From assembly GCA_963663225.1 (NCBI GenBank), contig OY760142.1, forward strand, positions 1,824,001 to 1,888,000: a stretch of DNA of 64,000 bases, given 5' to 3'. Made by a program: the position numbers and the translations under genes. This document shows positions 31,488-41,911 of this stretch, one piece after another (position 1 is the first letter of the stretch; the number at the start of each line of letters is the position of its first letter). Under the pieces are notes generated by a model. It worked only from the letters and a program-made list of their open reading frames with translations. It did not search any database and had not been told where the DNA came from. The stretch comes from Nitrospirota bacterium (lineage in GTDB: Bacteria > Nitrospirota > UBA9217).

Positions 31488-33827
31488 ATGAAGAATTCTG
31501 CTGTTTCGGCAATAGCTGCCGGCAAGAATGGTCTTGGCTTGTCCGAAAACTGCCGCACGGTCCTGGAAAAGCGCTATTTGAAGCGAAATGAGGAAGGAGC
31601 GGTTATTGAAACAGCAGAGGATATGTTCACGCGCGTCGCGCGGACTATTGCCGGGGCGGACAAAGCCTACGGCAGGTCCGACGCTGAAGTAGAACAGACG
31701 GCCGCGGAATTCTACCATGCGATGACCTCGCTTGAGTTTTTGCCGAACAGCCCCACGCTGATGAATGCAGGGCGGGAACTGGGCCAGCTTTCCGCCTGTT
31801 TCGTGCTTCCGGTCGGAGATTCCATGGATGAGATTTTCGAATCCGTAAAACATGCGGCGCTTATCCATAAGTCCGGCGGCGGCACCGGGTTCTCCTTTTC
31901 GCGCATCCGCCCGAAGAACGACGTGGTAAAATCCACCAAAGGTGTGTCGTCAGGCCCCATTTCATTTATGACGGTGTTTGATGCGGCAACCGAAACAGTA
32001 AAACAGGGCGGCACGCGGCGCGGTGCGAACATGGGAATTCTCCAGGTGGACCATCCGGACATCCTCGACTTTATCACCTGCAAGCAGCAGAATGACCGCC
32101 TGAACAACTTCAATATTTCCGTGGCCATGACCGACACGTTCATGGAAGCCGTTGAATGCGACGGCGAGTACGACCTGGTTTCTCCCCGGAACAAAAAAGC
32201 GGTCAGAAAATTCAAGGCTACCAAGGTATTCGACACCATCGTAAACATGGCCTGGAAGAACGGAGACCCGGGGATCATTTATCTGGACCGCATTAATCAG
32301 TACAATCCTACCCCGCACATAGGCATGGTGGAGTCCACCAATCCCTGCGGAGAGCAGCCGTTGCTTCCCTATGAATCCTGCAACCTCGGCTCCATCAACT
32401 TGTCCAGAATGCTGGCCCCGCACGGCGGAGCCGTGGACTATGAAAAACTCCGGCGTACCGTGCGTCTGGGAGTGCACTTTCTCGATAATGTGATCGACGT
32501 CAACCGGTATCCCATAGAGAAGATATCGGAAACGACCCGTGCAAACCGCAAGATCGGCCTGGGCGTCATGGGTTTCGCGGACATGCTGCTCGAACTGGGA
32601 ATCCCCTACAATTCCGATGAGGCGGTGAAGCTTGGTGGAGCAGTGATGAAGTTCATCACTGATGAAGGACGGAAAATGAGCGAGGAGCTTGCCGGGGAGC
32701 GCGGGGCTTTTCCCAACTTTCAAGGAAGTATTTACGACAAGCCGGGTGTGGCTCCTGTGCGGAATGCCACGGTGACGACGATTGCCCCGACGGGGACGCT
32801 TTCCATTATCGCGGGCTGTTCGAGCGGCATTGAACCGCTTTTCGCGCTTACCTTTGTCAGGAAGGTTTTGGATGGGGCAGAACTGCTGGAAGTAAACCCC
32901 GTCTTTGAGAAGACGGCAAAAGCAAGAAACTTCTACTCCGACACGCTTATGAAAGAAATCGCGGAGCACGGCGGATGCACGGGCATCAAACTGGTGCCCG
33001 AAGATGTGCAGCGGGTGTTCGTCACAGCCCATGACATTACGCCGGAGTGGCATATCCGCATGCAGGCCGCATTCCAGAAATACACCGATAATGCCGTGTC
33101 CAAAACCGTGAATTTCCCGCACAGCGCCACCCATGACGATGTAAGAAAAGTATATTTGCTGGCGCACAAACTGGGTTGCAAAGGGGTGACCATTTACCGC
33201 GACGGATCGCGCGATGAGCAGGTGCTGCACAGCGGAGCTACGGAGAAGGCGCGCAAGGCTGCAGCTGTTCCCGCACCGCCTGCGCAGGCAGAAGACAAAA
33301 AACCGAGGCATCGTCCGGCTCTTACGCAAGGCGTTACGCAGAAAATACCCACAGGCTGCGGCAACCTTTATATTACGATCAACGAAGACGAGGAGGGGAT
33401 CTGCGAAGTCTTTTCCACCATGGGGAAGTCGGGCGGCTGCGCAGCGAGCCAGTCGGAAGCGGTAAGCCGCATGGTCTCTCTTGCACTTCGGTCCGGGGTC
33501 TCCATAGACTCCATTGTCAGACAGGTAAAGGGAATTCGCTGCCCTTCACCGGCGTGGGGAGAAGGCGGATCCATTCTGTCTTGCCCGGACGCCATCGGCC
33601 GGGCCTTGGAGCGCTATCTTAAGGAACATGTAAGCCAGTATCGTCAGCATCACAAACCGAAGGCGAGCGTTCAACCGGTATCAGGTCAGGTATTGTCGGA
33701 TTGCACGGCAGGGACCGGGAAAAACCACCTCGGGCTGTGCCCGGAATGCCCGGACTGCGGCGGATTGCTTGAATTTGGCGAAGGGTGTGCTTTCTGCCGG
33801 GGATGTGGTTTCTCGAAGTGCGGATAA
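31488..33827 (+). CDS. nrdJ: Vitamin B12-dependent (class II) ribonucleotide reductase with TSCPD domain
   Basis: PNSPTLMNAG, QLSACF, TNPCGEQ, TIAPTG, KGVTIYRDGS, LSCPDA, C-terminal Cys cluster; NrdR boxes upstream. Confidence 0.95.
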   Translation: MKNSAVSAIAAGKNGLGLSENCRTVLEKRYLKRNEEGAVIETAEDMFTRVARTIAGADKAYGRSDAEVEQTAAEFYHAMTSLEFLPNSPTLMNAGRELGQLSACFVLPVGDSMDEIFESVKHAALIHKSGGGTGFSFSRIRPKNDVVKSTKGVSSGPISFMTVFDAATETVKQGGTRRGANMGILQVDHPDILDFITCKQQNDRLNNFNISVAMTDTFMEAVECDGEYDLVSPRNKKAVRKFKATKVFDTIVNMAWKNGDPGIIYLDRINQYNPTPHIGMVESTNPCGEQPLLPYESCNLGSINLSRMLAPHGGAVDYEKLRRTVRLGVHFLDNVIDVNRYPIEKISETTRANRKIGLGVMGFADMLLELGIPYNSDEAVKLGGAVMKFITDEGRKMSEELAGERGAFPNFQGSIYDKPGVAPVRNATVTTIAPTGTLSIIAGCSSGIEPLFALTFVRKVLDGAELLEVNPVFEKTAKARNFYSDTLMKEIAEHGGCTGIKLVPEDVQRVFVTAHDITPEWHIRMQAAFQKYTDNAVSKTVNFPHSATHDDVRKVYLLAHKLGCKGVTIYRDGSRDEQVLHSGATEKARKAAAVPAPPAQAEDKKPRHRPALTQGVTQKIPTGCGNLYITINEDEEGICEVFSTMGKSGGCAASQSEAVSRMVSLALRSGVSIDSIVRQVKGIRCPSPAWGEGGSILSCPDAIGRALERYLKEHVSQYRQHHKPKASVQPVSGQVLSDCTAGTGKNHLGLCPECPDCGGLLEFGEGCAFCRGCGFSKCG

Positions 33828-33924
33828 TGTGCCGTGCCGTGCTCTCTGGAAGTCAGATGTTTAGACAGAAGAGAACCTTGTATAGAGGATATGAGTATAA
33901 ACTGTTGAATTTAAAGGATTATTA

Positions 33925-34116
33925 GTGGGAATTGATCAGGTGATCATAGAACTGTATCGTTTGGCTGAGACGAAGAAATGGGATGGAAAATCCACCGATG
34001 AGGCACTTTTTGCGGCAATCGAAAGGATGGAACAACTGTTGGAGCAGAAACAGGCCGAGAAAAGAAGAAGTACTACTGCTCATGCAAACAAGAAGCCGCC
34101 AAGAATATGGTGTTAA
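33925..34116 (+). CDS. Small hypothetical protein
   Basis: AAGGA RBS before GTG; 63 aa, helical and charged. Confidence 0.45.
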   Translation: MGIDQVIIELYRLAETKKWDGKSTDEALFAAIERMEQLLEQKQAEKRRSTTAHANKKPPRIWC

Positions 34117-34140
34117 CTGTGAATAAAATCATAAAAAAAC

Positions 34141-34169
34141 TTGACATTTACCCGATATAATTCTACAGT
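34141..34169 (+). promoter_or_regulatory. Sigma70-type promoter for the structured RNA and H1-like gene
   Basis: TTGACA-17 nt-TACAGT. Confidence 0.65.
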
Positions 34170-34180
34170 AGCGTTTGACA

Positions 34181-34345
34181 AGAAGCTTAATATACAACCT
34201 GACTTGTGTGCGGTTTTCAAAGTATTCTGAACGCAAGACGATCACTCCGCGAAAGCAGTCCCGCTTGTAATCTCCGGATTACGAACGGGTTTACGATAGG
34301 CGTACTGTTATTAAACCCGTATGAAAACGGGTCATCAGCTTATTC
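34181..34345 (+). ncRNA. Candidate structured leader RNA
   Basis: Closing helix aagct/agctt, GAAA tetraloop hairpin, long stem capped by cUCCGg, tacg/cgta hairpin, acccgt/acgggt hairpin; ends just before the AGGAGG RBS. Confidence 0.65.
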
Positions 34346-34361
34346 AAGGAGGAAGGCACGT

Positions 34362-34718
34362 ATGGGGAACGAGAAGATCGTGCAGTATGAGTGCAGGGTG
34401 TGCGGCAGAAAGATAGATGTAACGAGGACCGGCGACGTGTATGAAGAGCCGGTGTATTGCTGCGGTCTTGAGTCAGCGGAAATCAACGTACAGGAAGTGC
34501 CGGCGGTTCAGGAAGCACCGGTAGCCGTAAAGAAACCGGCGAAAAAGAAGACCAAGAAGAAAGTCGTTGCAAAGAAAAAGGCCAAGAAAAAAGCGGCAAA
34601 AAAGACGGTAAAAAAAGCCGTAAAAAAGAAAGCGACCAAGAAGAAAACAACCAAGAAAAAAGCAACGAAAAAGAAAGTCGCCAAAAAGGCAAAAAAAGCA
34701 GTAAAGAAAAAAAGATAG
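34362..34718 (+). CDS. Desulforedoxin-like CxxC...CC domain fused to a histone-H1-like Lys/Ala-rich tail (118 aa)
   Basis: AGGAGG RBS; YECRVCG-x-VYCCG; tail KKPAKKKTKKKVVAKKKAKKKAAKK... Confidence 0.8.
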   Translation: MGNEKIVQYECRVCGRKIDVTRTGDVYEEPVYCCGLESAEINVQEVPAVQEAPVAVKKPAKKKTKKKVVAKKKAKKKAAKKTVKKAVKKKATKKKTTKKKATKKKVAKKAKKAVKKKR

Positions 34719-34754
34719 TAATGCATGGTTCAGCAATACTGCATAGTATTCACG

Positions 34755-34792
34755 ATAGGGCTTCCGGAAAAGACCGGAAGCCCTATTTATTT
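34755..34792 (+). terminator. Intrinsic terminator
   Basis: atagggcttccgg-aaaaga-ccggaagccctat followed by ttattt. Confidence 0.85.
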
Positions 34793-34822
34793 GTGCAATT
34801 CAGTTATGACCAATGTTGACTT

Positions 34823-35662
34823 ATGGAACATGCGGATTTAAAATTTGGTATGCAGTTCAAAAAAAATACGGAACGTAAAATACAGCGGCTTACCGGCAGG
34901 GCCATTGGCGATTTCGGCATGATCGTGAACCATGACCGGGTTCTGGTCGCGTTGTCCGGCGGAAAGGACAGCTGGACGCTTCTCCATATGCTGGAACGCC
35001 TGCGGCGGCGTGCCCCGATTGATTTTACGCTTATCGCAATTACCGTCCATCCCGGATTCTCAACGTTTCAGACAGATTTCCTGGAAAAATACCTTCGCAG
35101 GCACGAATTCGAATACCGCATTGTTCATGCGCCCATTTATTCAATCATGCTTGAAAAACTCTCGTCCGGCGACACACCCTGCGCATTATGCTCACGAATC
35201 AGGCGCGGGGTGCTGTACACACAGGCACGAGAACTGGGATGTACGAAAATCGCTCTTGGCCATCACCGCGAAGATTTTATCGAAACGCTGCTGTTGAACC
35301 AGTTTTACAATGGCAAGATCAAGGCCATGGCGCCGATTCTGAACGCTGATGATGGTCAGAATGTGGTTATCAGGCCGTTGGTATATGCTCCTGAAGAGAC
35401 TATTATCCAGTATGCGGCGGCCGCCGGGTTCCCGATCGTCTGTTGCAGCTGCCCGGTATGTGGAAATCAGGACCTGAAGCGCGTGAAGATGAAAAGCCTT
35501 TTGGAAAATCTTGAGCGGGAGCATCCTGGAATTAAGGCAAGTTTACTGACCTCCCTCGCTGATGTGGAGTATCGCCATCTGTTGGTGCGGGAACAGGGGC
35601 TTGCGCACAGCAGGTTGCTGAAAAAAGGATCATCAGGAGGCATGCCGCCTTTCGATGAATAG
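34823..35662 (+). CDS. ttcA: tRNA 2-thiocytidine(32) synthetase TtcA
   Basis: SGGKDS PP-loop, CALCSRIRRG, ALGHH.ED, IRPL, CSCPVC. Confidence 0.9.
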   Translation: MEHADLKFGMQFKKNTERKIQRLTGRAIGDFGMIVNHDRVLVALSGGKDSWTLLHMLERLRRRAPIDFTLIAITVHPGFSTFQTDFLEKYLRRHEFEYRIVHAPIYSIMLEKLSSGDTPCALCSRIRRGVLYTQARELGCTKIALGHHREDFIETLLLNQFYNGKIKAMAPILNADDGQNVVIRPLVYAPEETIIQYAAAAGFPIVCCSCPVCGNQDLKRVKMKSLLENLEREHPGIKASLLTSLADVEYRHLLVREQGLAHSRLLKKGSSGGMPPFDE

Positions 35663-41685: not shown

Positions 41686-41761
41686 GGGCCGGTAGCTCAG
41701 TTGGTAGAGCACCGCCCTTTTAAGGCGGGTGTCCTGGGTCCGAATCCCAGCCGGCTCACCA
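41686..41761 (+). tRNA. tRNA-Lys (UUU)
   Basis: Cloverleaf gggccgg/ccggctc, anticodon loop cTTTTaa, CCA encoded; T-loop TCCGAAT. Confidence 0.95.
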
Positions 41762-41833: not shown

Positions 41834-41911
41834 GTCCCCATCGTCTAGCCCGGCCCAGGACACCGCCCTTTCACGGCGATAACAGGGGTTCGAATCCCCT
41901 TGGGGACGCCA
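41834..41911 (+). tRNA. tRNA-Glu (UUC), integration target
   Basis: gtcccca/tggggac acceptor stem, anticodon loop ctTTCac, GGTTCGAATCC, CCA. Confidence 0.96.

Follow-up and report, generated by a model that had tools for sequence, protein, structure and literature searches.

The window analysed here, a stretch of 64,000 nt, comes from the complete 3.26-Mb genome of a Nitrospirota bacterium (G000) whose relatives are represented solely by metagenome-assembled genomes. Within it, a 245-bp gap separates a 63-codon ORF (33925-34116, plus strand) from a 118-codon gene (34362-34718, plus strand, defined by its ORF and translation, with its ATG at 34362), and this gap holds the leader region that is our subject. 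The 63-codon ORF matches no Pfam or NCBIfam family and stops 25 nt before the -35 element described below. Nearly all loci of the same uncultured family have an upstream ORF with a conserved C-terminal ...KKQPR(I/L)W(S/C) whose end lies some tens of nt upstream of the promoter, and because of this shared C-terminus and position we regard it as a real, syntenic small gene. Upstream of it, 31488-33827 (plus strand) encodes a 779-aa ribonucleotide reductase (RNR) of class II type, which carries a TSCPD domain and has a C-terminus rich in Cys (...CPECPDCGG...CAFCRGCG...). On the other side, the 118-codon gene is followed by an intrinsic terminator at 34754-34797 (plus strand), recovered by a scan at 34754-34787 as a 14-bp stem with a U-rich tail, and orthologous genes likewise end in GGGCUUCCGG...CCGGAAGCCC-U terminators. 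The next gene, at 34823-35662 (plus strand), encodes the tRNA 2-thiocytidine synthetase TtcA (322 bits against a cut-off of 272); it has a promoter-like site of its own at 34816-34844, and many relatives show TTGAC at the same place after the terminator. Public sequencing runs were at hand as assembled contigs only, two of them (X1 and X2) probably DNA; the RNA run X3 contains a contig of a close relative over 34437-34664 and another within the RNR gene, and none over the leader.

The 118-aa product opens with a domain of ~45 residues carrying a CxxC...CC pattern (a zinc ribbon of the Cys4 type), closes with a K/A-rich tail of KKKA-type repeats, and is highly basic overall. An earlier reading of this DNA, made from the sequence only, had called the gene H1-like, a fair label for the C-terminal tail. 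No Pfam family matched the protein; the nearest domain match, the FmdB zinc ribbon, stayed below threshold (E 0.15), and a search for solved structural relatives yielded none, the best E being 0.46. More than 260 homologues supplied no function from any source, most being named 'hypothetical protein' or nothing at all, and three bearing unrelated automatic names; a search of open-access full text likewise returned nothing on the zinc-ribbon/H1-like protein or on the leader motif. Nucleic-acid binding is plausible for a basic product of the Cys4 type, and its composition suggests a nucleoid protein. The gene itself is evidently very strongly expressed.

Transcription of this gene can be assigned to a dedicated promoter, as had been proposed for 34141-34169. 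The element spans 34133-34169 (plus strand) and comprises an A-tract, a -35 hexamer TTGACA (34141-34146), a 17-nt spacer and a -10 hexamer TACAGT (34164-34169), with 10/12 consensus matches. A promoter scan by itself performs at chance level here, finding 2 sites where 1.5 are expected, and the call therefore rests on conservation across 109 orthologous upstream regions, taken from 55 distinct genome loci and 54 metagenome contigs of the one uncultured Nitrospirota family. Over these regions the consensus is AAAAAaCTTGACATTTnatgnAgATGATTCTAcAtTA, and mean pairwise identity reaches 0.73, compared with 0.55 at the third positions of codons in the gene that follows; within its own genome the promoter sequence is unique at up to 3 mismatches. 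Between genera the spacer (34147-34163, TTTnnnnnAGATGATTCTA) varies little more than the two hexamers do; it may serve as an operator, or a very strong promoter may require it. With a start predicted ~7 nt after the -10, the 5' UTR of the 118-aa gene would run from 34177 to 34361 (plus strand), making it ~185 nt long instead of the ~165 nt first estimated. Orthologous leaders range from 58 to 189 nt.

What the family has retained across these lengths lies at the 3' end of the leader. A hairpin close to the ribosome-binding site (RBS), ACCCGU-AUGAAA-ACGGGU (34315-34332, plus strand; arms 34315-34320 and 34327-34332), had been noticed in the window, and we find it to be conserved throughout the family, with a CCCG/CGGG core and upper pairs that covary. 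In 91 distinct sequences 79.5% of cells in the hairpin columns pair, compared with 25-47% after a shift of the 3' partner by 1-3 columns, and none of 500 shuffles reached the observed covariation score. The proportion of paired cells is 75-80% in a MAFFT alignment (55 sequences), a model-based alignment (53) and an enlarged alignment (96, of which 91 are distinct) alike; the helix was entered by hand, MAFFT with RNAalifold on all 55 3' modules having returned no pairs. The fifth pair of the stem is UA in 37 of the 91, CG in 21 and UG in 4, and a GU closes the base of the stem in 52. By comparison, C-G dominates the three lower pairs (83, 85 and 87 sequences) and GC never occurs there, an invariance that is overstated in this set since 45 of its metagenome sequences came from a search pattern fixing GGGT of the 3' arm; among 51 distinct sequences free of that bias, the counts are 45, 45 and 48. 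The loop is unconserved, with 3-8 nt of any sequence.

Downstream of the hairpin lies a conserved single-stranded linker, 12-16 nt long in the family and in the window CAUCAGCUUAUUC (34333-34345, plus strand; family consensus UYAUCAGCUUA in the model-based alignment columns), followed by the Shine-Dalgarno (SD) sequence AAGGAGG (34346-34352, plus strand), which sits 9 nt before the ATG, is nearly invariant in alignment A1, and is complementary to the 3' end of the genome's own 16S rRNA (...GAUCACCUCCUUUCU). The SD lies outside the hairpin, about 12-17 nt from its end in canonical leaders and 13 nt in the window, an arrangement unlike that of an RNA thermometer of the ROSE or fourU type. A strong promoter, one RBS-proximal hairpin, and the linker with its strong SD, AAGGAGG(G), and spacer to the ATG are conserved family-wide, and nothing else is. 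One genus (g11; loci L056, L059, L060 and L061) carries a variant module, AAUCCCGC-GGGA-GCGGGUUAUCCGGUAAAGGAGG, with a GGGA tetraloop, CCGG in place of CAGCUU, and a 5' leader hairpin CCAGAGGAC...GUCUGG.

As the hairpin is also an inverted repeat, the conserved blocks could in principle act on the DNA, as operators for a DNA-binding regulator downstream of the promoter. The promoter spacer and GGTTCTCGAAGTATTCTGAAC, an imperfect GTTC..GAAC dyad, are indeed conserved without a consistent RNA fold. However, the G.U and U.G pairs that are common on the sense strand (at the base in 52/91, at the fifth pair in 4) would be A.C mismatches on the other strand and meaningless in duplex DNA, the two arms co-vary as RNA pairing predicts, and the hairpin lies ~140-155 nt downstream of the predicted start, adjoining the SD. 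We consider a DNA-level element very improbable, chiefly because of the sense-strand G.U pairs in the stem.

The module is tied to one gene. The N-terminal domain of the protein occurs in 56/64 family genomes and 16/19 genera; across the phylum it was found in 74/401 sampled genomes, 24 of them outside the family and only 33-53% identical. A covariance model of the 3' module (R1) matches its own genome once, at 58.4 bits with the next best at 20.8 bits, and gives exactly one match per genome in 52/64 family genomes, each abutting the protein gene. Metagenome contigs were scanned with an exact pattern (GGGTYATCAGCTTA, 0-6 nt, AAGGAGG), and 64/65 matches precede the same protein gene, 54 of the 64 with a recognisable promoter; the 65th (L170) was set aside as an unrelated AT-rich context with neither hairpin nor gene. 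Four family genomes (L034, L052, L054 and L066) have the gene, with a protein domain still 66-73% identical, and no model match. Their leaders are shorter, and RNAfold places a sequence-unrelated hairpin upstream near the SD, directly before it in L054 and L066. Outside the family, 18 orthologues from other Nitrospirota families and three additional paralogue loci all stay at or below 12 bits even with filters off, and several of these other-family orthologues show, by eye, consensus promoters within ~60 nt of the start codon. Since orthologues in other families have short leaders and no module, the long leader is an invention of one family. The extra zinc-ribbon gene copies (L067 at G031:C1:120890-121580; L042 and L044 in G076) have neither promoter nor module, and in G031 two copies stand in tandem, 10 nt apart. 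Taken with the searches described below, the leader is real, conserved at the level of the family, absent from Rfam and tied to one gene.

Upstream of this module the leader is far more variable. A semi-conserved block, GGUUUUCAAAGUAUUCUGAACGCA (34212-34235, plus strand; family form GGUUCUCGAAGUAUUCUGAACGCA), was located by motif search in 22/55 genome-derived leaders, two of which (L030 and L063) look off-target; among the 54 metagenome leaders, many show it on inspection by eye. The 22 single-sequence folds disagree and yield no consistent structure for the block, and one-base indels, judged by reading, rule out that it is coding; an in-frame 13-codon ORF over it in L017, considered as a leader peptide, has no counterpart in the window and was rejected.

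Between this block and the RBS hairpin lies a 68-nt insert (34243-34310, plus strand) restricted to G000, G004 and, in diverged form, G002, and it is here that most of the structures listed in the sequence-only reading reside. The gc-GAAA-gc element (34249-34256) and the tacg-atagg-cgta hairpin (arms 34292-34295 and 34301-34304) are present as described. The 12-bp stem (34260-34289) is present as well, with a UCCG cap and one C.A mismatch; one compensatory and three one-sided changes in G002 leave its pairing intact, so that within these three genomes it is probably a real hairpin. The insert also holds the 5' half of the competing pairing discussed below. The closing helix between aagct (34183-34187) and agctt (34337-34341) can likewise be found, but it is a HindIII palindrome and is broken by a G.G in G002, the nearest other species. 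A sequence block that had seemed familiar from other anaerobes (GGGTTTACGATAGG...) is limited, among 205 loci, to those of G000 and G004, and G002 has a variant of it. The insert is present in single copy in its own genome, and a repeat or mobile origin was rejected; other members of the same genus (L153, L169 and L172) carry quite different inserts. The G004 leader is 99% identical to that of G000 and has a C.A mismatch that weakens the RBS hairpin from -8.0 to -3.0 kcal/mol.

One further contact involves the other end of the transcript. The leader sequence AGUAUUCUGAAC (34221-34232) is complementary, over 12 bp with one bulged C, to GUUCAGCAAUACU (34729-34741), which sits in the loop of an AUGCA...UGCAU hairpin (34721-34744) within a 3' UTR segment identified by reading (34721-34750, plus strand). 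The complementary motif occurs only in L012 and L013 (G000 and G004), that is, in 2/79 loci with a 3' UTR; a conserved 5'/3'-UTR pairing was accordingly rejected, and the complementarity may be chance. The 3' UTR also contains AAUACU-GCAU-AGUAUU.

The sequence-only reading had gone on to describe the leader as densely structured, with mutually exclusive pairings, and to propose an uncharacterised riboswitch, a protein-binding leader or an RNP-forming ncRNA. Dense structure does not hold up as a property of the family: mean minimum free energy over 102 distinct leaders corresponds to a z of -0.25, with 4% below -2, and the part upstream of the 3' module equals its shuffles (mean z +0.15, 97 leaders). 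The window's own leader is not significantly more stable than shuffles either (z -1.48, with 16/200 shuffles as good; z -1.78 in a second estimate). The competing pairing is exact, acgggttta (34285-34293) being the perfect reverse complement of taaacccgt (34312-34320), yet it is confined to the three related genomes and loses 2/9 pairs in G002. In the window the competitor of the hairpin's 5' arm does exceed dinucleotide shuffles of the upstream leader (z -3.47); a comparably strong one (z < -2) occurs in 6/47 leaders, the window included, and upstream pairing with the two hairpin arms shows no enrichment over the 47 (mean z -0.21 and +0.04). Nor did the 26 nt 5' of the hairpin show any signal of sequestering the SD or AUG (mean z +0.10 over 47 leaders, 8/55 having been excluded because a simple finder missed their canonical hairpin). 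No sign of selection for an open RBS was seen, its unpaired probability being 0.42 natively and 0.45 with shuffled upstream sequence. In 27 well-aligned leaders of one clade, RNAalifold added only an invariant CCGCC/GGAGG contact that lacks covariation. The dense, switch-like fold is thus genus-specific and statistically weak.

These results bear directly on a riboswitch, in which a ligand-binding aptamer would switch expression through alternative pairings. Such an element would share with known riboswitches and Rfam cis-regulators its 5'-UTR position and, in this genome only, the competing pairings; in its favour are the 9-bp pairing in G000 that rivals two hairpins at a level above chance, and the 12-bp stem that keeps pairing in G002 through a compensatory change. 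It would also be new. In agreement with the earlier statement that the leader matches no known riboswitch consensus, Rfam 15 at gathering thresholds reported only two tRNA genes in the whole window (41686-41758 and 41834-41908, plus strand); at E values up to 10 it gave four chance-level matches over 33900-34800, none inside 34170-34361, and 20 relatives' loci gave 0 matches. Unlike riboswitches, however, the family has no conserved multi-helix core or expression platform: a single hairpin is shared across it where a conserved, covarying, multi-helix aptamer would be expected, and a terminator-forming or SD-hiding alternative pairing is not conserved family-wide, the z of -3.47 being the window's own. 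A plus-strand scan finds no intrinsic terminator or attenuator in the leader, only the gene's own terminator; the RBS hairpin is followed by CAUCAGCUU and the 12-bp stem by UUUACGAU (4 U in 8), below the rule of the scan. Furthermore, the downstream product is a basic, structural-type protein, neither transporter nor enzyme. Given an elaborate architecture limited to three genomes, a leader of variable length, folding energies at shuffle level and no enriched alternative pairing, we regard a riboswitch as highly unlikely. An independent RNP-forming ncRNA likewise found no support, and a CsrA-bound leader fits poorly: the variable loops mostly lack GGA, and no CsrA domain was found in the window's own genome (99% complete). 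Rather than a riboswitch-like aptamer, the leader module is a small, new 5'-UTR motif that acts in cis; judged from sequence comparison, it is most likely an element of mRNA stability and translation initiation, or else the operator of a factor acting in trans, which could be the protein that the gene encodes.

Of these functions we tentatively prefer the first, in which the last ~50 nt of the leader (the G+C-clamped hairpin, the unpaired linker and the strong SD) would set the fate of the mRNA rather than sense a ligand. The primary transcript would start at the conserved promoter, at a point we can only predict, and its loosely structured, variable upstream leader would be attacked by RNase Y or RNase E/G and then trimmed 5'-to-3' by RNase J. 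The hairpin may halt this trimming and shield the RBS from the variable sequence upstream, and the outcome could be a stable mRNA whose 5' end lies close to the hairpin, with an open landing strip leading to a strong SD; the role, if any, of the 68-nt insert of this genus, with its hairpins and competing pairing, would be a separate matter. Several observations suggest that the hairpin is a protective structural element: a stem-loop is retained at this place even in leaders that have lost the sequence, as with the unrelated hairpins near the SD in the four genomes with no model match, its loop is free, it adjoins a strong SD without enclosing it, and the genome encodes RNase J (620 bits), RNase Y (762 bits) and an RNase E/G domain (367 bits). 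The covariation of the stem, the consensus promoter with its A-tract, the complementarity of the SD to the 16S tail, the shuffle-level folding upstream, and the lack across the leaders compared of conserved SD/AUG sequestration or of a conserved competitor of the hairpin are all consistent with this preference. On the other side, a purely physical barrier would need neither the fixed orientation of the lower stem, even allowing for its inflated counts, nor a conserved linker sequence; the mismatch in G004 weakens the hairpin; orthologues in other Nitrospirota families manage without such a leader; and the idea of insulation finds no thermodynamic support, the RBS being no more accessible than with shuffled upstream sequence.

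The hbs mRNA of Bacillus subtilis, encoding the nucleoid protein HBsu, offers a precedent for such a stabilising leader: its structured 5' UTR is reported to be cleaved by RNase Y, and a strong SD to bring RNase J1 to a halt (PMC5737220). Our locus resembles hbs in gene content and layout, with a gene for a small, presumably abundant and basic nucleic-acid-binding protein, a long 5' UTR, a strong SD and a host that has both RNase Y and RNase J, although the nucleoid role is here a prediction from composition. Even the 5'/3'-UTR contact of hbs has a formal parallel in the 12-bp complementarity of G000 and G004. In contrast to hbs, that pairing is unconserved here, no homology links the sequences or the proteins, the processing is proposed by analogy, and the presumed barrier would be a conserved hairpin upstream of the SD and not the ribosome itself.

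An operator recognised by a factor acting in trans is suggested by the lower stem with its fixed orientation, by the conservation of the linker and by the strict one-per-genome linkage to a basic, presumably nucleic-acid-binding product. The base of the hairpin and the linker might then be bound by a protein, most simply the encoded product, and binding beside the SD would hinder the 30S subunit, giving negative feedback. Autogenous translational operators of this kind are familiar from ribosomal-protein leaders and from the thrS operator. As in those systems, the element is single-copy, acts in cis on one gene, lies beside the RBS, and combines covarying pairs with a stem conserved in sequence beyond what pairing requires; it precedes the 118-aa gene's orthologue without exception among the 52/64 family genomes that carry it, and all but one of the 65 metagenome matches lead to the same gene. 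The product, highly basic and of the Cys4 type, is a plausible nucleic-acid binder. Here, however, binding to RNA is a presumption about a protein with no Pfam or structural assignment, the loop is free in both sequence and length, which is unusual for protein-recognised hairpins, and the element is not known to mimic another RNA target and matches no Rfam leader. Moreover, the four family genomes with no model match lack the hairpin or have an unrelated one instead, while their protein domain is still 66-73% identical. We therefore hold autogenous control to be possible but somewhat doubtful. It and control of mRNA fate fit the evidence about equally, with mRNA fate slightly ahead, and the two are not mutually exclusive.

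A combination of feedback with the genus-specific structures is a considerably weaker prospect. The leader and the protein would form a dedicated feedback pair, with its origin in this one family, in which the protein binds CCCG/CGGG together with UYAUCAGCUUA, and in the genus of G000 the leader would have expanded into a conformational switch, with the 12-bp stem and the RBS hairpin opposed to the 9-bp pairing and a 5'/3'-UTR contact in addition; we rate this as improbable.

The conserved single-stranded sequence beside the SD, which carries no thermodynamic signature, could also be where a small RNA docks by base pairing, perhaps with the help of Hfq, to control translation. The genome has three Hfq-domain matches, and the chlamydial histone-like protein HctA is under control of the sRNA IhtA (PMC3469542, PMC4355289). 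The parallel lies in a candidate control that acts after transcription, at the 5' end of the mRNA for a basic, H1-like protein, while the proteins are alike only in their lysine-rich character and, unlike in the chlamydial case, a complement search found no sRNA partner here. Indeed, genome-wide exact complements of at least 12 nt to the leader number 115, the longest being 13-14 nt, which is chance level: roughly ~70 would be expected for 12-mers, and overlapping matches were counted more than once. An sRNA target site accordingly seems quite unlikely.

Whichever of the two leading readings holds, the element resembles known 5'-UTR stabilisers or translational operators, so that it represents a new motif and no new class of mechanism. 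It would contribute a previously undescribed 5'-UTR motif of cis-regulatory type, from a lineage without cultured representatives among the relatives' records, and the small RNA element (~50 nt) and the 118-aa protein are both testable in vitro. It would also flag a very conserved, evidently highly expressed and unclassified zinc-ribbon/H1-like protein as a candidate major nucleoid protein of these bacteria, one whose dosage may be controlled post-transcriptionally.
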